DNA of 32,000 nucleotides from Thermoproteus tenax Kra 1 (lineage in GTDB: Archaea; Thermoproteota; Thermoprotei; Thermoproteales; Thermoproteaceae): contig NC_016070.1 of the NCBI RefSeq assembly GCF_000253055.1, positions 1,560,001 to 1,592,000 on the forward strand, given 5' to 3'. Position 1 is the stretch's first letter; each line of letters begins with the position of its first letter. Under the pieces are notes generated by a model, which made no database searches, was not told the DNA's origin, and saw nothing but the letters and a program-made list of their open reading frames with translations. Both the position numbers and the translations under genes were made by a program. Positions 5,557-31,222 of this stretch are shown piece after piece.

Positions 5557-5909
5557 GCCCGCCGCTGTGCCGGGACATATAAACCTTGCATATTCCAAGT
5601 CTACAACAGCGGCGGAGATACAACGTAAAACACGACAAATAGGACGGGGCGGTAGGTGCCACCCCGTCTAGACCCGCGGCGCGGTGCTCTCTCACATTTA
5701 TCCAGCGGCGCCGGCGTCTCAGCCGCAACCGCGGCTCGGCCTGATCGATTCACGACGCCGGCGTCATCCCAGGTGCGTAGCTAGAAGACCTCGGGTCCCC
5801 CCTATCAGCTGGCCCTGGCTCCAGGCTCTTTGGACCCTGGCTGTAGGCGCCGGCGGCTTGGGGCGTAGATACGTCGGACGACGAAATGCTATAGCATTAC
5901 GAAGAAAAC

Positions 5910-5938: not shown

Positions 5939-6030
5939 GCCCCGGTAGCTCAGCCTGGTGGAGCGCCTCACTGGTAATGGTGGTTGACCGCCTAGTGAGG
6001 AGGTCCCGGGTTCGAATCCCGGCCGGGGCT
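5939..6030 (+). tRNA. tRNA-Thr(GGT) with one 18-nt intron in or next to the anticodon loop
   Basis: GCCCCGG-TA-GCTC-AGCCTGGTG-GAGC-G-CCTCA-CTGGTAA[18 nt]-TGAGG-AGGTC-CCGGG-TTCGAAT-CCCGG-CCGGGGC-T. All stems are Watson-Crick. Confidence 0.9.
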
Positions 6031-6859
6031 CTGGCTTTCCCTTTCATCTACGGTGTGTGAAATCGTTTGTGTCTACCCCCTACAGACTTCTTTGAAACGA
6101 TGGGCTTCAGTTCTACTCTGCGGCTATCTCTTTGGCTTGAGCCTCCCGTAGGCTTGTATGCCCATTTTGTTATGGTGGGCTTCCTCGGTGGGACCTCCTC
6201 TACAGCCCCCGCCCTCTTCTTCGGCAAACTCCCAGTTGGCGACGCGGCCCTATGTAGCACATGCCCCGAACCTCCTCGAGTTAGCCAGCGACGCCTAGCC
6301 CCTGCCCAGGCGAAGCTAGAGCTGGCTGGGTGGCGGAATACGTCATAAGATGTAGAAAGAATAAACCTGTCCTTAAGTATGCCCTCGCCTTTATGACTAG
6401 GGCGGCGAGTTTGCGACAGCTTCTCCGGCCTCGGCCAACGCCGCTACTTACCTTTGTCCTCGTGGTCGGGGCCTACGTAGGGCTCCAGGGGTCTATAAGA
6501 TAAATATCGCTTATGGGGAGGCTGAGGCGGGCTCGACGTAGTTTATCCAATATGCGAGGAATCTAAAACGAGCAGCCCAGCGCTTCATCAGCCGCTGAGG
6601 TCATCCCTTGGGCTCCGCCAAGGTGGGTAGACGCCTTCGTCGCGCGGGGGACGGCCGAGAGGGTAACACAGAGGCGCGGAAGCCTCCGTGGAGCTCCGCC
6701 TAGTTGGCCCTGAACAGGCAAAGGGGCGGCGGAGGGCGCGCCTAACGTGCCGAGAGGCGCCGAGGTCCTTAGTTTTATATTTAGAACAAATCCCCTTTAA
6801 TCTAGAGCAATAGATCCACGAGAATAATCCTTTTTAAGTTCGAAATATGAAACTAGGCG

Positions 6860-9225: not shown

Positions 9226-9362
9226 GCATATGAGGGGGCTTCTTCTAGAGGTCCGCGCTTTCGGCGCAGACGGAGGGCTTAATACGCGTGTGAGGGGCAG
9301 TGTCCCACGACCGCGCCGACAGGGGACGCGCGCAGGCCGCCGGCCCACGCCCGAGGTATTGT

Positions 9363-9419
9363 GCCGATTGGGGCGCAGATGAGTCCCACGCAACGCCGGC
9401 GTTGCGCCCGAGGACAAAC
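9363..9419 (+). repeat. GC-rich intergenic module, block B copy (contains a perfect 18-bp palindrome at 9389-9406)
   Basis: gccgattggggcgcagatgagtcccacgcaacgccggcgttgcgcccgaggacaaac aligns by eye with 11222-11290 (rc), 20368-20434 (rc) and 21396-21462 (rc). It ends a few nt before the TATA (ctttatatt, 9422-9430) of the downstream gene. Confidence 0.6.
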
Positions 9420-9449
9420 GGCTTTATATTCTAGTGTGGGATTAACTTG

Positions 9450-9956
9450 ATGTCCGAGTTTGTTAAACCCATCTACGCCAGAGCCTTCTTCAATATGGAC
9501 TCCACAGGCTTAGTAACACAGTTTATGGTCTTCTACTATTCAGACCCCAAGGCCTATTACGCAGGCCTCTCCAGAGAGGAGCTAGAGGAGGAGCTCGAGA
9601 CCGCCCGGGAGAATATGCAGGCGTTTTTGGACGAGGAGGTCATCAAAATAAACGGCGAGAGGGTGAGGGCCAGAGTAGTGCGCGTCGATCTGGGGCTCAT
9701 GACTATAAACTTGGCCCACATGACCTTCCTCATAGACTTCAAGGGGAATCTCAAGAGGGGGCTCAACGTCTACGAAGATATCTACGAGGAGGAGGTCGCC
9801 GAATATCCCTACGAGTTCCTCTGGCGCTTTCCGGGGCGCATTGTGAGGGCTACCGTCGCCGGCCGTTTGACGGTCGAAGGCGGAGTTCTCCACGTGAAGG
9901 TGCCCGCTGGGACTAAAGTGGGGGGCAGCGAGAGAGTGGAGTTCCTCTTGGACTAG
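9450..9956 (+). CDS. Hypothetical protein (no family recognised)
   Basis: 168 aa from ATG 9450, which lies about 24 nt after TATA ctttatatt. Balanced composition (MSEFVKPIYARAFFNMDSTGLVTQFMVFYYSDPKAYY...). The 3' end overlaps the aIF2-gamma stop in a convergent arrangement. Confidence 0.6.
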   Translation: MSEFVKPIYARAFFNMDSTGLVTQFMVFYYSDPKAYYAGLSREELEEELETARENMQAFLDEEVIKINGERVRARVVRVDLGLMTINLAHMTFLIDFKGNLKRGLNVYEDIYEEEVAEYPYEFLWRFPGRIVRATVAGRLTVEGGVLHVKVPAGTKVGGSERVEFLLD

Positions 9957-11188
9957 TCTAGGACGGCCTTCCCGCCTTTCAATACGCCGTAGTTGCTCAC
10001 GAGCCACCTGTTCTTGATCTGCCTAGTTATCACCGCCTTGTCGCCCTGCTCGGCGACGACGGCCTTCCTCAGAGCGATAGTTGCAACGTCCTTTCGGACG
10101 GACTGCACTACTCCGAACACCGTCGCTGAGCCTATGGACACTAAAACGGTCTCCCCCTGTTTTAGTGGCTCGGGCCTCTCCCCATGCCTCGGGAGCTCCT
10201 TCACCTCCAGCTCGAGGACTGTCCAGACCGGCGGCAGCGTGCCCGGCTTCCCCGCCACTGAGCCCGCCAGCGCATCGGCCTTAGTCAAGGCGGGGTCCAG
10301 CGTCGTCATCAATCCCACGAGCCCGCCCGGCCTGGCCTCCTCGGCCTTCTCTCCGCCGTACTCTATACCGACGACTTTAGTCAACAGAGGCTGATACGGC
10401 GCATTGGGCTTGTCCACTTTGAGCCCCGGCCTTATCTCTATCTCGTCGCCGAGCCTCACTGCGCCCTGCAACAACGTGCCCCCCAACACGCCTCCCCTCA
10501 GCTTCTCCACGGGAGTCCCAGGCGGATTGACGTTGAAGCTCCTGAGGACGGACATACGCGCCGGCTTGGACAGATCGGCCTCCCTCTTGGGGGTTATCCG
10601 CTCTATATACATGGCCAGGGCGTCTATGTTGACCTTGTGGAGCGCCGAGACTGGGACTACGGGCGACCTCTCGGCCCACGTCCCGCCCAAGAACTTCTTT
10701 ATCTGGCCGTAGTTCTCCAGAGCCTTCTCCTTGGGAACTAAGTCGACCTTGTTCTGCGCCACCACCATGTTTCTGACGCCGATTATGTCCAACACGGCGA
10801 AGTGTTCGGCCGTCTGAGGCTGGGGGACCGACATCGTGGCGTCTATGACCATGAGGGCCGCGTCGACTGCGGCGGCCCCCGACACCATTGTGGCGATCAA
10901 CACCTCGTGGCCTGGCACGTCCAAGATGGAGATCTTTCTGCGCAGCTTGGGCTCCGACCCGTCGGGGCACTTGCCCTTGTCCAACAGCCCGTCAGTGAGG
11001 GGGTACTCCGATCCTGGGCAGTCGTATATGCCGATCTGAGTATAGCCCAACTTTATCGTCATAGCCTTCTTGACCTCATCGCTGTGGCGCGCCACCCAGA
11101 CCCCAGAGAGCGCGTAGACTACGCTGGTCTTGCCCGCGTCAACGTGGCCTGCAGTCGATATTATCCCATCGGGGTAGACGAAGCCCAT
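9953..11188 (-). CDS. eif2g: Translation initiation factor aIF2 gamma subunit
   Basis: 411 aa. GTPase motifs GHVDAGKT (G1), DVPGHE (G3) and NKVD (G4), followed by EF-Tu-like beta-barrel domains II/III. Colinear with the archaeal aIF2-gamma sequences I know. Confidence 0.9.
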   Translation of the reverse strand: MGFVYPDGIISTAGHVDAGKTSVVYALSGVWVARHSDEVKKAMTIKLGYTQIGIYDCPGSEYPLTDGLLDKGKCPDGSEPKLRRKISILDVPGHEVLIATMVSGAAAVDAALMVIDATMSVPQPQTAEHFAVLDIIGVRNMVVAQNKVDLVPKEKALENYGQIKKFLGGTWAERSPVVPVSALHKVNIDALAMYIERITPKREADLSKPARMSVLRSFNVNPPGTPVEKLRGGVLGGTLLQGAVRLGDEIEIRPGLKVDKPNAPYQPLLTKVVGIEYGGEKAEEARPGGLVGLMTTLDPALTKADALAGSVAGKPGTLPPVWTVLELEVKELPRHGERPEPLKQGETVLVSIGSATVFGVVQSVRKDVATIALRKAVVAEQGDKAVITRQIKNRWLVSNYGVLKGGKAVLD

Positions 11189-11221
11189 GATCCCATAAAA
11201 GCAAGAGTATAAAACCCTGCC

Positions 11222-11290
11222 GCCTGTCCTTAGGCGCCCATCGCCGGCGTTGTGTCCAGGGACTTCCCCCTCGCCTGCGCCTCAACCGGC
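11222..11290 (-). repeat. GC-rich intergenic module, block B copy
   Basis: The sense (minus) strand reads gccggttgaggcgcaggcgagggggaagtccctggacacaacgccggcgatgggcgcctaaggacaggc. It shares gaagtccctgg and the acgccggcg core with 20368-20434. It ends a few nt upstream of the aIF2-gamma TATA. Confidence 0.6.
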
Positions 11291-11394
11291 GGAGGCGCAC
11301 GGCGGTTAGACCGCCGGCCTATGCCGGAGAGCCGACGCCCGAGCCCTCGGAGACTCCTCGCCCTCCCGTCCCCCGTCGGGCCCGCGCCGGCGGC

Positions 11395-11462
11395 GCATCT
11401 CTCCGCCGGAGGCTGATCTGTCCACGCCCGCCTCGCTACTATAGGGCGTTAGAGCAACGCCT
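11395..11462 (-). repeat. GC-rich intergenic module, block A copy (weaker)
   Basis: The sense strand reads ...gttgctctaacgcc...cagatcagcctccggcgg.... Compare ...gttgctcacgcc... (20530-20625 rc) and ...cagactacctccggcgcgg... (18638-18712 rc). Confidence 0.45.
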
Positions 11463-11467
11463 CTCGC

Positions 11468-11944
11468 TCACCGCCCGCCCTTGGCCGCAAGCTCAGCCAA
11501 CAGGCGCTGTATCTCCAGAAGGGTCCTCTGGACCTCGTCGATCCTCTTGTTCACTTCGTCGATCCTTTTGCTTAAGTCGTCTGCGCGTCTGTTCATCTCG
11601 TCGATTCTCTTGCCCAAACTCTCGGCCACGGCATCGATCCTCTCATTGGTATCATCTATACGCTTGTTCATATCGTCGATCCTTTTGCTTAAGTCGTCTA
11701 TACGCTTGTTAGTTTCGTCTATCCTCCTCGCCAGAGTCTCGGCCACTGCGTCTATCCTCTTGTTCATATCGTCGACCCTCTGCTCCAGCCGCGCCACCTC
11801 CTGCCTCAAGTCGCGGAGCTCGGCCGTAATAGTGCCCAGATATAACAGGAAGATGTCCTCCGTAGAGAGCTTCTTCCCCTCCTTAAGCTTCTCCACAACT
11901 CTGTCCACGGCCACTCTGAGGGCGTCCTCGACTATCTTGTCCAC
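11468..11944 (-). CDS. Coiled-coil protein with KRIDD heptad repeats
   Basis: 158 aa. GTG start 11944 lies about 23 nt after tttataac. The central region is (x)KRID(D/E)x heptads; no enzymatic motif is seen. Confidence 0.7.
   Translation of the reverse strand: MDKIVEDALRVAVDRVVEKLKEGKKLSTEDIFLLYLGTITAELRDLRQEVARLEQRVDDMNKRIDAVAETLARRIDETNKRIDDLSKRIDDMNKRIDDTNERIDAVAESLGKRIDEMNRRADDLSKRIDEVNKRIDEVQRTLLEIQRLLAELAAKGGR
11534..11767 (-). repeat. Tandem duplication, 2 x 117 nt (39 aa), built from 21-nt heptad units
   Basis: MNKRIDAVAETLARRIDETNKRIDDLSKRIDDMNKRIDD versus TNERIDAVAESLGKRIDEMNRRADDLSKRIDEVNKRIDE. At nucleotide level tcgtcgatccttttgcttaagtcgtct recurs at 11556 and 11673, exactly 117 nt apart. 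Confidence 0.85.
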
Positions 11945-12117: not shown

Positions 12118-12165
12118 TCCACTTGGGCAGGCAAGGAGGTCCCAGGGCATAAGTCCAACCGACAT
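12118..12165 (+). repeat. GC-rich intergenic module, block B-like copy (lacks the GCCGGC core)
   Basis: ccacttgggcaggcaaggaggtcccagggcataagtccaaccgac resembles gggagcgggcaaggaggaagtccctgggcgc (20368-20434 rc). It is oriented like the downstream hsp20 gene. Confidence 0.45.
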
Positions 12166-12280
12166 CAACAATGATCGCCTAGGGCAAACAGCAGTTAGAG
12201 GAGGCGAGGGGCTGAGGTGTAGCAAGATTGCCGTTTGAGGCGCTGGGTGAAGGTTTTTAACTGAGACACAGATTGTGTAT

Positions 12281-12673
12281 ATGTCCCAGGACTTAATCGA
12301 GGAAATAAGGAGGACTTTCGACGAGCTGTCCAAGGCGATCCAGAAGACGGTCGAGGATGTTGTGCGGACTACCACAAGCACGGTGAGAAAGATCACAGTG
12401 GAGCAAGGCATCAACATCAAGGAGCAAGGCGACGATGCAATAATAGAGATAGATATGCCCGGCCTAGAGCCAGGCGATATATCCCTCTTTGTCTCAAAAG
12501 AGGGTGACTACGTTAAAGCCGAGGGCGCCAGAGGCGAGAGGAAGTACAGCAAGAAGGTGTTTCTCCCGTTCAAGATAGAGCCATCTACCGTCAAAGCCTC
12601 ATATAAGAACGGCGTACTGACTCTGACCGCGAAGAAGAGCAAGCCCCAGGAGATCCAGATCAAAGTCGAGTGA
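12281..12673 (+). CDS. hsp20: Small heat-shock protein (Hsp20/alpha-crystallin family)
   Basis: ATG 12281 lies about 24 nt after gtttttaac. The alpha-crystallin domain reads ...AIIEIDMPGLEPGDISLFVSKEGDYVKAEG...FKIEPSTVKASYKNGVLTLTAKK. Confidence 0.85.
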   Translation: MSQDLIEEIRRTFDELSKAIQKTVEDVVRTTTSTVRKITVEQGINIKEQGDDAIIEIDMPGLEPGDISLFVSKEGDYVKAEGARGERKYSKKVFLPFKIEPSTVKASYKNGVLTLTAKKSKPQEIQIKVE

Positions 12674-18637: not shown

Positions 18638-18712
18638 CCCATGCCCGATGAGTCCGCGCCGGAGGTAGTCTGGCTACCGATGAAGGCGTGGGCGAGGAGA
18701 AACCCAGCCCTT
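18638..18712 (-). repeat. GC-rich intergenic module, block A copy
   Basis: The plus strand reads ccatgcccgatgagtccgcgccggaggtagtctggctaccgatgaaggcgtgggcgaggagaaacccag. At 21573-21650 it reads ccatgtccgatgaccctggcccgagacggctggctgccggtgaaggcgcgagctaggaggaagacctag. The core ctggct[a/g]ccg[a/g]tgaaggcg matches at 17 of 20 positions by eye. Confidence 0.6.
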
Positions 18713-18742
18713 TAGGGCGGGGAGGCGGCGTGGATCATCTGG

Positions 18743-19663
18743 CTAGATGCCTACGAGCTGGGCCACGTACTCCTCCTTCTTGAACTTTACGAGGTCTTCG
18801 TACCTCTGCCCCACGCCTAAATAATATATCGGCCTCCTGAAGACATGGAGAAAGGTCAAGATGGAGCCGCCCTTAGGGTACGAGTCCACCTTAGTCGCTA
18901 TCATGCCGTCGATACTTACGTATCTGCTGTAGTACCTCGCTATCTCTAACGCCTCGTTGCCCAACTGTGAGTCAAAAACAAAGATGGAGAAATGCGGCTG
19001 CGCCACACGCTGTATTTTAGAAAGCTCCTCCATCAGGTTTTTGTCTGTGTGCATGCGGCCTGCCGTGTCGATGAGAACTAGGGGCACCCCTCTAGATGCC
19101 GCATGTTGTATCGCATCGTAGGCAACAGAGGCCGGATCTGCGCCGTATTTTCCTCCGATGACTCTGAGGCCCAGCCTCTTCCCGTGTTCCTCTAGCTGCT
19201 CTCTGGCGCCCGCTCTGAAGGTATCCGCCGCAGCTAAGACGCTCTGGAGCCCCCTCGCCCTAAAGAGATAGGCCATTTTCGCCAACGTGGTCGTCTTCCC
19301 GTAGCCGTTGGGCCCCAGAAACATCACAACGACAGGCCTAGTTTTATCAAGAAGCGCTACGGCCTCCTTCTCGAAGTCGACGTCAGGTATGTCGCCTATC
19401 ACCGAGAGTAGAGCCTCGTAGACGGCCCTCTTAACCGTGGCCTCTCTATCGCCGAACCTGGGCACCTTGACGCCGACTAGTCTCACGCGAAGAGACTCCG
19501 ATATGGCGTCAGCCACTTCCACGGCCACGTCGTTCTCCACAAGGCTCATGTAGAGGTCCTCGACCAACTGACCCACCTCCTTCTCGCCCAGGGCGTCTTC
19601 CTTTACTGCAGAGACTAGAGAGTCTACGAATCTAGAGAAAGTTTTTCGTAGCCTTTCGAACAT
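18743..19663 (-). CDS. ftsY: Signal recognition particle receptor FtsY
   Basis: 306 aa. SRP-GTPase NG domain with GPNGYGKTTTLAKMA (G1), DTAGR (G3) and TKVD (G4). Confidence 0.9.
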   Translation of the reverse strand: MFERLRKTFSRFVDSLVSAVKEDALGEKEVGQLVEDLYMSLVENDVAVEVADAISESLRVRLVGVKVPRFGDREATVKRAVYEALLSVIGDIPDVDFEKEAVALLDKTRPVVVMFLGPNGYGKTTTLAKMAYLFRARGLQSVLAAADTFRAGAREQLEEHGKRLGLRVIGGKYGADPASVAYDAIQHAASRGVPLVLIDTAGRMHTDKNLMEELSKIQRVAQPHFSIFVFDSQLGNEALEIARYYSRYVSIDGMIATKVDSYPKGGSILTFLHVFRRPIYYLGVGQRYEDLVKFKKEEYVAQLVGI

Positions 19664-20073
19664 CAGCCGATTACGCCCAACTGCTCCAATACTTGCCTTA
19701 TCTGTAGAGCCCTCTCGCTCAACTTGGCTAGGTTCCCCTCCAGGTTAGTTTTGATGCTGTTCATCTCGTTTATTCTATCGCTTAGGATCCTCTGGGCGTT
19801 CTCTACGTCTATAAAGGCGTAATAATTAGCCCCCAGCGGAGTCAGAACCTCGCCCCGATCCACTGAGGCCTTGAGGTACACCCCGGCGCCTATATGGACG
19901 TACCTCTCTGCGTCCTGCGAGAGCGACTTCAAGCCGTCAAGGGCGAGTTTTAGGTCTTCAAGGGTTTCGTTCACAAGGGAGAGCTGGGCTTGAAGGCCGG
20001 CTATTAGCTCGGAGAGGGTTTGATATTCGTCTATCAGTCTCGCTATATCCTCCCTAGTTATAGTCCGCGCCAT
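19663..20073 (-). CDS. pfdA: Prefoldin alpha subunit
   Basis: 136 aa. Coiled coil, two beta hairpins (VHIGAGVYLKASV...VLTPLGANYYAFIDV), then coiled coil. Stop/start overlaps with both neighbours. Confidence 0.8.
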   Translation of the reverse strand: MARTITREDIARLIDEYQTLSELIAGLQAQLSLVNETLEDLKLALDGLKSLSQDAERYVHIGAGVYLKASVDRGEVLTPLGANYYAFIDVENAQRILSDRINEMNSIKTNLEGNLAKLSERALQIRQVLEQLGVIG

Positions 20074-20324
20074 TAGTACGCAATTATTCTGTCTATATAA
20101 ACAAGGGCCTTGATCTCGTCAGGCGCCTCATCGATGGGCGCCTCCTCCACTCTGTCTATCCTTATCTGGCCCCTCTTCACTTTGTGATTGCTCCCTATGA
20201 GCTCGAAGACCTTCTGCACCGCTTCGTAGGGCTTAGTCGCTGTTACATATTTCTTGAACTTCACAGTCTCCCCGTTCTTCAGCTTAAATGAGCCCGATAC
20301 TAAATACAATCTCGGCGCGGCCAC
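20073..20324 (-). CDS. rplX: Ribosomal protein LX (eL20/L18Ae)
   Basis: 83 aa, GTG start about 22 nt after acttaaaac. ...YEAVQKVFELIGSNHKVKRGQIRI... matches the LX GSxHKVKR signature. Conserved LX-pfdA-ftsY order. Confidence 0.75.
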   Translation of the reverse strand: MAAPRLYLVSGSFKLKNGETVKFKKYVTATKPYEAVQKVFELIGSNHKVKRGQIRIDRVEEAPIDEAPDEIKALVYIDRIIAY

Positions 20325-20367
20325 GGCCGGGTGAGGTCAGAGTGTTTTAAGTTTTTCGGGCGTCCAT

Positions 20368-20434
20368 CCGTCCCCATGCGATTACTGCCGGCGTAGCGCC
20401 CAGGGACTTCCTCCTTGCCCGCTCCCTAATCGGC
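20368..20434 (-). repeat. GC-rich intergenic module, block B copy
   Basis: The sense strand reads gccgattagggagcgggcaaggaggaagtccctgggcgctacgccggcagtaatcgcatggggacgg. It is the closest relative of 11222-11290. Confidence 0.6.
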
Positions 20435-20529
20435 GTCCATTACCCCAGCGCCGCTCTGACCCCCTCGCCGAGTATACCTCGTCCTTCACCGATCTGGGCA
20501 AGCAGCCCCTCTTGTTCGGAGTTCCACTC

Positions 20530-20625
20530 TCGGCGGAGGCCGGCACTTCAACTGGCGGTGAACCCGCTGCTGGTATCGGCACGAGCTACGGCGGAGGAGC
20601 CGTGGTATATGGCGTGAGCAACCGA
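20530..20625 (-). repeat. GC-rich intergenic module, block A copy
   Basis: The plus strand reads ...ggtatcggcacgagctacggcggaggagccgtggtatatggcgtgagcaaccgatggg. Compare ...ggtgaaggcgcgagctaggaggaagacctaggcgtgagttcgataatg (21610-21660). Confidence 0.5.
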
Positions 20626-20644
20626 TGGGCCAACTGGGCGTCTC

Positions 20645-21310
20645 TCACTTGAACAAGGTGGACAATATGCGCATGATCTCGGCTCCCGTAGTCTCCCAGC
20701 CCACCAGGGCGCCTCTGTCGTTAGCTACCAAGCCGCCTCTGACGAAGGATCTGCCTCTGTTCACAGTGCCCACATCCGCGTGAACCCCCAAATAGTTCTC
20801 TAGCTTCTTCAGATCTGCGTCAGTCGCCTCGGGCGCCACTAGTACGCCTCTGGAGTTGGCCACGGCCACTGATCCTACCAGAGGTGTGCCTGCTATAGTG
20901 TCGACGAACACCTCCACGCCCAACACATCTTTCACGATCTTGTGATTGTCTGGCTCTAAGATCGGCGAAACCACCGCGGCCTTGTTGTTGGCCAGTATTA
21001 AGTTGGCCAACGCCGTATATTTAGTCTGGATAACGCCTATGTTTAAACCGAGGGCCTTCAACGAATTTATCTCTTCGTCCAACGCGATATTGGGCACCAG
21101 AATGCCGTTGTCATTCATGACAAGGAAAATGCCCAGCAGAGGAGACTTGGCCACAGATGCCCTCACCACAGTGTCGCCTAACACCTCCCTGATGTTTTCA
21201 TCGATTTTCTCTGGAACATCGAATGGTACTAGCGCCATCTTGTTGTTGACGGCTATGTAGACCCCTATTGATGACGAACCGAACACTTTAACAGGGACTA
21301 CATCTGCCAT
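20645..21310 (-). CDS. eif6: Translation initiation factor aIF6
   Basis: 221 aa. The pentein-fold repeats (...GSSSIGVYIAVNNKMALVP..., ...SPLLGIFLVMNDNGILVP..., ...ALANLILANNKAAVVSP..., ...VGSVAVANSRGVLVAP..., ...VRGGLVANDRGALVG...) are diagnostic of eIF6. Confidence 0.9.
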   Translation of the reverse strand: MADVVPVKVFGSSSIGVYIAVNNKMALVPFDVPEKIDENIREVLGDTVVRASVAKSPLLGIFLVMNDNGILVPNIALDEEINSLKALGLNIGVIQTKYTALANLILANNKAAVVSPILEPDNHKIVKDVLGVEVFVDTIAGTPLVGSVAVANSRGVLVAPEATDADLKKLENYLGVHADVGTVNRGRSFVRGGLVANDRGALVGWETTGAEIMRILSTLFK

Positions 21311-21395
21311 ATCACTGTGTGTTCACTGACTTAAAAGCATTGGGCGCGCTCTATGCCCCCTCTGCAACGTCCCGGCGGGCCAGAGGGCTTGCCCC

Positions 21396-21462
21396 GCGAT
21401 CCTTTAGGGGCGCCTCCGCTGGCGGGCGTTGCCCAAGGGTAGTTTTCTTCCTCGCAATTGAG
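21396..21462 (-). repeat. GC-rich intergenic module, block B copy (degenerate)
   Basis: The sense strand reads ctcaattgcgaggaagaaaactacccttgggcaacgcccgccagcggaggcgcccctaaaggatcgc. It is colinear with the other block B copies, but the GCCGGC core is degraded to gcccgcc. Confidence 0.45.
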
Positions 21463-21572
21463 GAAAGCGTGTTTCTCTGTGCAAATAGGGCGCTTAAGCA
21501 CATGCCCGCAGTAAAGGAGCAGTGCCCCCACGACCCCCGGCCGGGGCCTGTCCCTGGAGGGGGCCTTTGCCT

Positions 21573-21650
21573 CCATGTCCGATGACCCTGGCCCGAGACG
21601 GCTGGCTGCCGGTGAAGGCGCGAGCTAGGAGGAAGACCTAGGCGTGAGTT
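21573..21650 (-). repeat. GC-rich intergenic module, block A copy
   Basis: See 18638-18712; this is the best-matching pair of the family. Confidence 0.6.
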
Positions 21651-22044
21651 CGATAATGAACGACTAGGGACAAACGGCTCCCGGGAGCTGACGGAGGAAT
21701 ATATTAATAGGATCAGTTCTGGGCCATCTATGAGCGACTGGATTATAGTGTCCGTGATCTTCCTTTTAGTCTTTGGCTTAACCTTGTTAGCTATCTATTT
21801 GATATATCTTTTGGCGCCTCAAGCGCCCACCGAGGCCAAGAGGAGGAGGTATGAGGCGGGCAATCCCCCGCACGGAGAGCCAAAATCAAGGTTGGCCATG
21901 CAGTATTTCGGTTACGTCCTCATGTTGGTGACATTGGGAGCCCTCATAGCAGTGCCCCTAATCTATTTCGCCTTGAGCCCCACATCTTATCTGTCGGCAT
22001 TTACTTCCTCGTCATAGTGGCCCTAGTGGTGTTAGCTGCCCTCT

Positions 22045-24549
<2,505 letters not shown>

Positions 24550-24755
24550 TCAGCGCCCGCCATGCGCGAGGCCTCGTCACAGATAGGCGTGGGTTCAACT
24601 CCTCATCTTAAAGTCGAGCTGGGCCTTGCCTTATATATTTGCTCGTCCGCCTAACGCTCAGCTCGGAGATCCCCCAGATCGGCACGGTTGAATCCCTAGC
24701 TAACCTAGTCTATGCTTAAGCCGGAGGCGCAGGAACCGGCGCAGTCGTATAACGC

Positions 24756-24806
24756 TCAGCTCTTAAAGGACTCTTCATTGGGTCGAGCGAGGTGAAGCGT
24801 CATCAC
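24756..24806 (-). ncRNA. Candidate C/D box sRNA (51 nt)
   Basis: The minus strand reads GTGATGA(C)-cgcttcacctcg(12)-CTCG(D'-like)-accca-ATGAAGA(C'-like)-gtcctttaagag(12)-CTGA(D). The box order and the two 12-nt spacers fit the archaeal C/D architecture. TATA-like ttttaaca lies about 17 nt upstream of the C box. The D' box is poor and no target was searched. Confidence 0.35.
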
Positions 24807-24846
24807 GTCGTACTGGTGGTCTCTGTTAAAATGCCTATTCGGAAAA

Positions 24847-30460: not shown

Positions 30461-30906
30461 GCGCGCAACAGAACGTCGATCAGAAGGTGGCAGAGTTGCT
30501 CAAGACGCTCGCAGAACACGCAGATGAGCTCCAGGCCCTTGTGGAGCAGCTGATCGAGCTCAAGAGGACTGGCGTACTTGACGCCTTGATGATCGTAGTC
30601 AATAGATTCGAAGAACTTATACACTACGTGTTCCAGGATCCCGCCATAATGAGGCTGGCGTCTCTGGGGGTCGATGGAACGCTGGGGGGTCTCTCAAAGC
30701 TTGAGACGCAAGATGTTATCAATATGAAGGCGTCGCTCCAAGAGCTTATAGTTCGGCTCGGGAAGGGCCTCACGCCTGATGCGTTGATCAATCCTAAGCC
30801 CGTCAAGGGAATCTGGGGCCTCTTGAGCGCCCTAAATGATCCAGACGTGCAGAGGGGATTGGGAGTCGCCTTCGCACTGTTGAAGGCCCTAGGGAAAACT
30901 CAGTAG
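30457..30906 (+). CDS. DUF1641-family protein
   Basis: The ATG overlaps the SQR-like stop (ATGA 30457-30460). Helical; the C-terminal ...LLSALNDPDVQRGLGVAFALLKALG matches my memory of DUF1641. An alternative ATG lies at 30439. Confidence 0.65.
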   Translation: MSAQQNVDQKVAELLKTLAEHADELQALVEQLIELKRTGVLDALMIVVNRFEELIHYVFQDPAIMRLASLGVDGTLGGLSKLETQDVINMKASLQELIVRLGKGLTPDALINPKPVKGIWGLLSALNDPDVQRGLGVAFALLKALGKTQ

Positions 30907-30972
30907 TTTTTTCGTCCGACGTTTGACCGCGTAAACGACTCCTCCTCACTCCAAGGGGCGAGGAGGAGTCGT
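30907..30972 (+). terminator. T6 tract directly after the stop codon, followed by a perfect 13-bp hairpin
   Basis: tag-tttttt (30907-30912). acgactcctcctc (30935-30947) pairs perfectly with gaggaggagtcgt (30960-30972) across a 12-nt loop. Confidence 0.5.
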
Positions 30973-31109
30973 CTCCTTCTCCCAGCGCCTATCTCGGCTG
31001 CGTCGATCGTCCCAGCCTCCCTCTCAACGCCATAGGAGCGCCTAGCGGCGGCGTCCGTGTTAAGGTCGTTTGGAATCCCACGAGTTGAGTTTGAATGAGG
31101 CCTTGTTAG

Positions 31110-31222
31110 AGCCCCGGCCGGGATTCGAACCCGGGACCTCCCGCTCTCTTGGTGCTATGGCTTACGAGGCTCACGCGGAGCTAAGCTCCTGGGCGCTCCG
31201 GACCGGGCTGAGCTACCGGGGC
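31110..31222 (-). tRNA. tRNA-Thr(CGT) with two predicted introns (about 20 nt inside the anticodon stem at 29/30, about 17 nt at or next to 37/38)
   Basis: The reverse complement reads GCCCCGG-TA-GCTC-AGCCCGGTCCG-GAGC-G-CCC[20 nt]GC-CTCGTAA-[17 nt]-GCGGG-AGGTC-CCGGG-TTCGAAT-CCCGG-CCGGGGC-T. The acceptor and T arms are identical to tRNA-Thr(GGT). TATA aaatttttaagg lies about 25 nt upstream. Confidence 0.8.

Follow-up and report, generated by a model that had tools for sequence, protein, structure and literature searches.

A lineage-specific insertion between aIF6 and LX in Thermoproteus tenax carries a copy of a small dispersed repeat

The aIF6–LX spacer and its inserted block

We analysed a 32-kb window of the Thermoproteus tenax Kra1 genome and, within it, the 320-nt spacer between the genes for aIF6 and ribosomal protein LX/L18Ae (window positions 20325–20644, genome positions 1,580,325–1,580,644). 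Both flanking genes lie on the minus strand, where aIF6 (20645–21310) is followed by the spacer and then by LX/L18Ae (20073–20324), prefoldin alpha (pfdA, 19663–20073) and FtsY (18743–19663). The spacer is G+C-rich (63.4%, compared with 55.8% for the whole window). Its longest open reading frame (ORF) has only 66 codons, encodes a peptide rich in Arg, Gly, Pro and Ala, and has no Pfam match, and no gene is called in the spacer in two independent assemblies of a sister strain (Logan contigs L017 and L018). An initial annotation, made from the sequence alone, had described this spacer as a G+C-rich module without a credible ORF that splits a conserved gene cluster and is the prototype of a multi-copy element family, with two sequence blocks, A and B, recurring in other spacers of the window. 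The composition and the lack of a credible ORF are as it had stated.

We found that aIF6 and LX are nearly contiguous in related genomes. Their spacer measures 28–97 nt in four Thermoproteus genomes of a genome collection, 34 nt in two assemblies that have in common the aIF6 nearest to that of T. tenax (85% identical) and 44 nt in a Pyrobaculum contig. The range over these six other Thermoproteus genomes is therefore 28–97 nt, and the view that the spacer splits a cluster contiguous elsewhere is borne out. In the relatives, the aIF6 stop codon runs directly into CGAAAAAyTTAATA, which holds the transcription factor B recognition element (BRE) and TATA box, and the GTG start codon of LX follows after ~25 nt. 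T. tenax keeps this promoter: the BRE/TATA of the LX-pfdA-ftsY operon (CGAAAAACTTAAAAC, 20340–20358, minus strand), aligned by eye with loci L001–L003, is orthologous to that of the relatives. What T. tenax has in addition is ~284 nt between the aIF6 stop codon and this promoter (20359–20642, minus strand), a block that is also present in a strain 99.1% identical to the window. Judged by comparison with the relatives, these ~284 nt of the spacer are a lineage-specific insertion. A 7-nt direct repeat, GACGCCC, can be read at both ends of this block; none was seen at the other copies, whose boundaries are less sharp.

The aIF6–LX spacer is one of four expanded spacers that could be compared with relatives, and all four hold the core of the repeat described below. 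In T. tenax the aIF6–LX spacer has 320 nt compared with ~30 nt elsewhere, the spacer between ftsY and the next gene has ~245 nt compared with 29–57 nt in relatives, and the divergent spacer between aIF6 and a membrane-protein gene has 419 nt compared with 73 nt in the closest other species. The fourth lies upstream of aIF2-gamma, where the promoter region was compared with that of relatives.

A repeat family in the expanded spacers

Only 84 nt of the 320-nt spacer are repeated (20365–20448, minus strand), because the segment 20530–20625, which the initial annotation had called Block A, resembles none of its listed partners. The similarity that had been called Block B is real and corresponds to the core of a repeat family. 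In comparisons among the spacers, positions 11226–11291 and 20370–20435 were 73% identical over 66 nt (blastn E 2.6e-9), and a 26-nt degenerate pattern matched four times in the window and never in 100 shuffles. A profile search of the window with nhmmer recovered five copies, and when each copy was removed from the model before the window was searched again (leave-one-out), five copies gave E values from 1e-11 to 0.02. The initial annotation was right that the spacer has a nucleotide-level repeat in common with other spacers. Within 12 kb we distinguish three solid copies, two moderate ones and a marginal one, with pairwise identities of ~65–80%. The family is known from these six supported copies (c1–c6) in the one 32-kb window, three on the plus and three on the minus strand.

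The copy in the aIF6–LX spacer, c1 (core 20365–20448, minus), has an nhmmer E of 7e-19 and a leave-one-out E of 1.6e-9. Copy c2 (core 11215–11300, minus; leave-one-out E 1.4e-11) ends ~5 nt before the TATA box of aIF2-gamma (9953–11188, identified with Pfam), and c3 (core 21598–21682, plus; leave-one-out E 3.2e-6) ends ~15–20 nt before the TATA box of a gene for a 95-aa membrane protein (21730–22017). Copy c4 (18659–18750, plus; leave-one-out E 0.022) runs convergently towards the ftsY stop codon. Over 64 nt it has 75% identity with c3. Of the core it has the 5′ half only, and its own 3′ half carries a hairpin, GCCC-UUUA-GGGC, that resembles the RNA HgcC. Copy c5 (core 9349–9428, plus) is supported by a leave-one-out E of 0.013 together with alignments, and ends directly at the TATA box CTTTATATT of a gene for a 169-aa protein (9447–9956). 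The marginal copy is c6 (12119–12196, plus), ~55 nt upstream of the TATA box of a probable HSP20 gene (12275–12673). Its E is 2.4e-7 inside the model and 0.1 when left out, and pairwise alignment with c3 shows the hallmark blocks; the weaker Block B copy that had been placed at 12118–12165 is accordingly marginal. A further sequence, c8 (21391–21469, minus), is doubtful: it scores E 1.2e-6 when in the model and is not found in leave-one-out, so that the weaker copy proposed at 21396–21462 is recovered as a model member only.

Other parts of the proposed family did not stand up. The profile search gave no support to suggested remnants at 5750, 6715 and 31033, and the one at 24715–24775 overlaps the published C/D box small RNA (sRNA) TtesR146. 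As a repeat, Block A matches nothing, and its supposed copy at 11395–11462 is unsupported. The pairing of 18639–18702 with 21573–21634, also assigned to Block A, is a real similarity (75%), but it belongs to the Block B family, read on the other strand, with a 5′ extension. The spacer is non-coding and does split the cluster, but to call it the prototype of an element family overstated the case: the family accounts for only 84 of its 320 nt, the segment named Block A is no repeat, and neither block is independent of the other.

The repeat begins with a short 5′ block, GCCGRTKRRGGCG, continues with a purine run, GGCRAGGAGGAAG, and ends in an imperfect palindrome of ~40 bp (TCCCTGG...ACGCCGGCG...CCTARGGACAAACGG). 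The remainder of the inserted blocks is much less coherent. For the orphan 5′ part of the c1 block (20449–20642, minus), which includes the former Block A, we detected no relative within the window or at related loci, nor did Pfam match any of its peptides. We considered and rejected a 5′ module common to all copies (GAGGGGCAGTGYCCC with TTAATA before it), as a model built from c3–c5 misses c1 and c2. The repeat itself was not found by nhmmer in ~95 kb from five related Thermoproteus genomes, nor were copies found in viral contigs or in phage or plasmid records; 12 metagenome matches fit the search pattern only. Four relatives were all that a scan of the genome collection yielded, and none of them had a copy by nhmmer.

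Two further observations concern single sites. A possible half-copy, GCCGTTTGAGGCGCTGGGTGAAGG at 12229–12256 (plus), abuts the TATA box of the probable HSP20 gene and resembles the 5′ half of c2, without statistical support. Contigs L017 and L018 of the sister strain have an identical first base, which falls within the palindrome TTCCTCGCAATTGAGGAA (window 21448–21465), and one of them ends inside c4. These contig ends correspond to window positions 21465 and 18707, and the assembly breaks may reflect palindromes or repeats.

The cores occupy a characteristic position. Each lies at the 3′ edge of a lineage-specific block of 200–350 nt, with a 3′ offset of 0–13 nt in five copies; the Fisher combined p of ~1e-5 for this arrangement is optimistic, because some block boundaries were set with knowledge of the core. 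Five of the six cores point at a co-oriented gene whose BRE/TATA starts 0–55 nt downstream, c4 being the copy that faces ftsY convergently, so that the co-orientation described in the initial annotation applies to all copies except that one. Orientation alone is not significant (p roughly 0.1). The genes downstream of the co-oriented cores (LX, aIF2-gamma, the 95-aa membrane protein, the 169-aa protein and the probable HSP20) are functionally mixed, and the distance from core to TATA box is not fixed (0, 5, 7, ~18 and ~55 nt).

Possible origins of the repeat

We found no sign that the repeat is translated. Each reading frame contains a stop codon in at least one copy, peptides from the spacers had no Pfam match at E up to 10, and tblastx comparison of the spacers yielded low-complexity noise only.

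The copies could instead be small non-coding RNA genes or co-transcribed RNA elements, for example sRNAs that bind L7Ae through a kink turn (K-turn). A G+C content of 63–70% in a 55% genome is typical of stable hyperthermophile RNAs, c4 can be drawn from its sequence with a canonical K-turn hairpin, and a TTAATA-like box 60–150 nt upstream of the core is common to c3, c4 and c5. The structural analyses nevertheless argue against this explanation. The 320-nt spacer folded no better than shuffled sequences (z +1.0 and +1.5), single cores gave z-scores of +0.7 to −2.2, none significant, and RNAalifold on the six copies returned essentially no consensus structure (−0.27 kcal/mol, four pairs) and no covariation. 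The 3′ half of the core, the imperfect palindrome TCCCTGG...ACGCCGGCG...CCTARGGAC, forms a hairpin on both strands in c1, c3 and c5 with z only −0.7 to −2.3, and it folds alike on both strands, as expected of a DNA inverted repeat. Moreover, the GA dinucleotides of the K-turn are lost in c1, c2 and c5, and no Rfam family reached its threshold anywhere in the spacers, with c1 and c3 having no notable match even at an E of 10. The repeat matches no named family, as had been proposed from the sequence. The copies are also missing at the syntenic sites in all relatives, whereas guide and housekeeping sRNAs are conserved, and the core changes fast between strains. They are not among the 52 listed C/D box sRNAs of T. 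tenax, of which none lies between genome positions 1,515,458 and 1,584,610, and no C/D box arrangement was seen in them by eye. We consider an RNA gene or element unlikely, and the structured-RNA hypothesis of the initial annotation found no backing in Rfam, folding energies or covariation.

Specific RNA classes fared no better. A tRNA or a C/D or H/ACA RNA was rejected on the lack of Rfam and ARAGORN hits and on absence from the T. tenax C/D list. Pyrobaculum-type H/ACA-like guide sRNAs are single hairpins with a K-turn and a guide pocket, conserved across the genus. Together with the Pyrobaculum C/D box sRNAs they resemble the T. tenax copies as small G+C-rich elements in Thermoproteales spacers, often near promoters or 3′ ends, and c4 has a K-turn-like motif. 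They differ in being genus-conserved with defined boxes or hairpins, whereas the T. tenax copies are lineage-specific, show no consensus hairpin or fold, and are absent at the syntenic Thermoproteus and Pyrobaculum sites. Permuted signal recognition particle (SRP) RNA would fit the spacer in size, G+C content and proximity to ftsY; it was discarded, since the published gene lies elsewhere and the Archaea_SRP model had no match even at an E of 10. The permuted Thermoproteus SRP RNA is 309 nt long, lies between ppdK and ppa, and has SRP54-binding and GNAR motifs (PMC4731332).

The sister strain allowed us to look at constraint. Contigs L017 and L018, which carry the same spacer, represent a strain that matches 2.76 kb of the window at 99.1% identity. 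The c1 core differs from it at 3 of 84 nt (20370, 20411 and 20428), compared with 22 differences in the other 2675 nt (Fisher p 0.04), and one of the three changes the conserved GGAGG to GGAUG. The counts are small, and this comparison gives no sign of purifying selection on the c1 core.

The only Rfam signal among the copies, a weak one, would point to transposons. HgcC (RF00062) matched c4 over its full 130-position model, on the strand already assigned to the copy, and ~24 of 26 bases of c4 around GCCC-UUUA-GGGC-GGGGAGG, counted by hand, agree with the HgcC consensus; a second and very weak match, to sot0042, falls on the same hairpin. In Thermococcus, transcription of HgcC RNAs starts inside the 3′ portion of transposase (tnpB-type) genes, or the RNAs exist as orphans (PMC4247193), and they share a right-end-like tetraloop with the sense-overlapping transcripts (sotRNAs) of IS1341 and with PATE-derived RNAs (PMC4615843). 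T. tenax has five transposase ORFs or fragments (PMC3189178). A specific version of a mobile-relic origin would accordingly make the copies PATE-like orphans, remnants of the right ends or guide RNAs (omega-RNA, HgcC-type) of IS200/IS605-IS1341 transposons, with the conserved 3′ edge as the transposon right end and the palindrome as its subterminal hairpin. The position of the cores at the 3′ edge of the blocks would fit, as would the missing terminal inverted repeats.

However, the HgcC score of c4 is 18.6 bits against a gathering score of 50, and its E of 0.027 in 281 nt becomes 1.3 in 13 kb, which is chance level. HgcC did not match c1 or c3, and c4 has only the 5′ half of the family core, so that its HgcC-like hairpin is not the family palindrome. 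No TnpB remnant was detected in the spacer translations (Pfam, E up to 10), no transposase is present among the window ORFs examined, and the copies are found on both strands (three and three). We regard the HgcC match of c4 as a lead and not a result, and an IS200/IS605-IS1341 right end as an improbable source of the family. A putative TnpB C-terminal remnant upstream of c4 (DMTASTANLALG, compared with D.NAS.NIA) was dismissed for want of Pfam support. As a separate observation, a long imperfect hairpin with GCCCGAUGAGUCCGCGCCG and GGCGGCGUGGAUCAUCUGGC as its closing strands can be drawn for the region 18641–18745 (plus), which is antisense to the 3′ end of ftsY. Inside the hairpin lie the HgcC-like GCCC-UUUA-GGGC and a canonical-looking K-turn hairpin, GCGCCG-GA-GGUAG-UCUGG-CUACC-GAU-GA-AGGCGU.

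The placement of the cores next to promoters raises the possibility of a function in DNA. The core could be a promoter-upstream module, such as an operator, an activator site or a 'mobile promoter-upstream element', for a dimeric factor that would tune the neighbouring genes, among them several with roles in the translation apparatus (LX, aIF2-gamma, possibly aIF6) or in stress responses (HSP20). The co-orientation of five of the six copies with a BRE/TATA 0–55 nt downstream speaks for this, as does the 3′ half, a nested palindrome centred on ACGCCGGCGT. Orientation and promoter proximity were the suggestive part of the operator hypothesis put forward initially; the varying distance to the TATA box (0 to ~55 nt) is where it falls short. 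In addition, c4 faces a stop codon, 80 nt with insertions and deletions far exceeds the usual size of an operator, no function unites the downstream genes, all relatives have a working LX promoter that lacks the module, and conserved blocks mutate between strains. Such a module is, in our judgement, distinctly unlikely.

A bolder proposal, to which we give very little credence, is that the cores are an orientation-locked, promoter-abutting module that spread through T. tenax, either as an orphan transposon-derived guide-RNA scaffold or as a platform for a lineage-specific factor. In the guide-RNA version, by analogy with nuclease-dead TnpB-like repressors, the neighbouring BRE/TATA would serve as the guide, carried on the read-through 3′ end.

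The reading we favour, to which we give an even chance, is that the spacer is a T. tenax-specific insertion and that the end of it next to the promoter is a small dispersed repeat in decay, mobile or recombinational in origin and carried as a neutral passenger. A non-autonomous mobile element, or one spread by recombination, would have left the copies as relics. It would have settled in the only permissive sites of a compact genome, the stretches that separate a stop codon from the BRE/TATA after it, and the copies would now be decaying without effect on the ancestral LX promoter downstream. The palindrome may be the former recognition hairpin of a single-strand transposase (Y1-type, IS200/IS605- or REP-like). 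Both the mobility of the repeat and this role of its palindrome are inferred. Among the three hypotheses of the initial annotation (structured RNA, operator and decayed MITE-like repeat), the last is the best fit in that the element is lineage-specific and fast-changing, although it lacks the terminal inverted repeats expected of it.

Several observations count against a mobile, neutral relic. Terminal inverted repeats were not found: in gapped comparisons of the left 45 nt with the reverse complement of the right 45 nt, the six blocks gave p values of 0.17–0.92 (1000 shuffles), and an ungapped scan returned only a 70% identical 20-nt pair, in c3. Those suspected by eye in c1, c2 and c3 are not significant. 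A possible target duplication was seen at c1 only, and no transposase or autonomous partner was seen among the window ORFs examined. The 5′ parts of the c3, c4 and c5 blocks have only faint residual similarity, and those of c1, c2 and c6 cannot be aligned with one another or with anything else; either the mobile unit is only ~80 nt long, or the 5′ parts of the blocks have decayed faster. Neutrality leaves the 3′-edge position of the cores unexplained, and by itself does not predict the co-oriented BRE/TATA of the five cores. Finally, the family rests on six copies in one 32-kb window and the strain comparison on three substitutions.

We found no described family that the repeat matches. By type, it can be placed among the small repeats that are REP-, MITE- or PATE-like. 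REP/REPIN elements are bacterial repetitive extragenic palindromes (REPs) mobilised by RAYT Y1 transposases. Like them, the T. tenax repeat is short, G+C-rich, intergenic, non-coding, imperfectly palindromic and present on both strands, without terminal inverted repeats and, the possible one at c1 aside, without target duplications seen. REPs, however, are 20–40 nt long, occur in hundreds of near-identical copies and often form inverted doublets, whereas the T. tenax unit has ~80 nt and six degenerate copies, its only candidate doublet (c8–c3) fails leave-one-out, a RAYT gene is not known here, and T. tenax belongs to the archaea. MITEs, the miniature inverted-repeat transposable elements, likewise are small, non-coding, multi-copy and lineage-specific intergenic insertions; the T. 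tenax blocks differ in having no terminal inverted repeats, a possible 7-nt target duplication at one copy, and non-homologous 5′ parts.

IS200/IS605-type elements have neither terminal inverted repeats nor target duplications. The right ends of IS200/IS605-IS1341 elements, PATE, HgcC, sotRNAs and omega-RNA resemble the family in a conserved 3′ terminus, a subterminal hairpin, the lack of inverted repeats and the occurrence of orphan copies; they are set apart by the weak match, far under the Rfam threshold and in one atypical copy (c4), and by the lack of an adjacent tnpB or a detectable TnpB remnant. Putative mobile promoters place the same sequence, co-oriented, upstream of non-homologous genes, and homologous sequence in a set orientation upstream of unrelated genes is what five of the six copies present. 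The difference is that the LX BRE/TATA is ancestral, orthologous to that of the relatives and outside the repeat, and therefore this promoter was not brought by the repeat.

Other features of the window and wider meaning

The window holds several other features. Exact copies of two published T. tenax C/D box sRNAs lie on the minus strand, TtesR145 at 24535–24610 and TtesR146 at 24745–24811. From the published coordinates of the two sRNAs, the window corresponds to positions 1,560,001–1,592,000 of the Kra1 genome. Neither has an Rfam match, and both are 87–89% identical to the Thermoproteus locus L003 (6844–6974), compared with ~72% in coding DNA. Their orientation with respect to the neighbouring genes is reversed in L003, implying a small local inversion. 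At 31108–31222 (minus) lies a probable 115-nt tRNA gene that neither ARAGORN nor Rfam picked up. It agrees with tRNA-Thr(GGU) at 5939–6031 over its first 21 nt, with one mismatch, and is identical to it over its last 34 nt; the middle is different and longer. This suggests the gene of a Thr isoacceptor that holds at least one non-canonical intron. The TATA-like sequence TTTTTAAG is found ~30 nt upstream of it. At 30935–30972, ~30 nt downstream of a gene ending at 30906, a near-perfect 38-nt palindrome (GACTCCTCCTC...GAGGAGGAGTC) may be a terminator-like hairpin.

Two protein-coding genes also differ from those of the closest other species. The Oxidored_q4-like membrane protein encoded downstream of c3 (21730–22017, plus) has 95 aa in T. 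tenax compared with 119 aa there. The N-termini are the same (MSDW...) and the C-termini diverge after about residue 85, which suggests that the protein was shortened in T. tenax by a frameshift or an early stop. The gene at 11468–11944 (minus) contains internal tandem repeats (11526–11784; a 117-nt unit of 21-nt sub-repeats), and encodes a coiled-coil protein with matches to dozens of coiled-coil Pfam families. The closest other species lacks the gene at this position and has an ABC permease gene there instead.

As it stands, the repeat is an ordinary decaying one. The T. tenax genome paper reported no repeats other than those longer than 300 bp with over 95% identity, and it described mobile elements as rare. 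In the region studied here, small repeats that had gone undetected account for every large lineage-specific spacer expansion that could be compared, and one copy interrupts a cluster of ribosomal/SRP genes which is otherwise unbroken across Thermoproteus and Pyrobaculum. If the promoter-abutting module we hold to be very improbable were nonetheless true, it would mean newly wired control of genes for the translation apparatus and stress (LX-pfdA-ftsY, aIF2-gamma and HSP20). Should the orientation bias towards promoters extend genome-wide, the repeat would be a candidate for repeat-borne rewiring of archaeal promoters. If the family itself proves to be genome-wide, it could usefully mark recent dynamics in a hyperthermophile genome that is very compact, and would be a test case for the spread of small repeats in Crenarchaeota.

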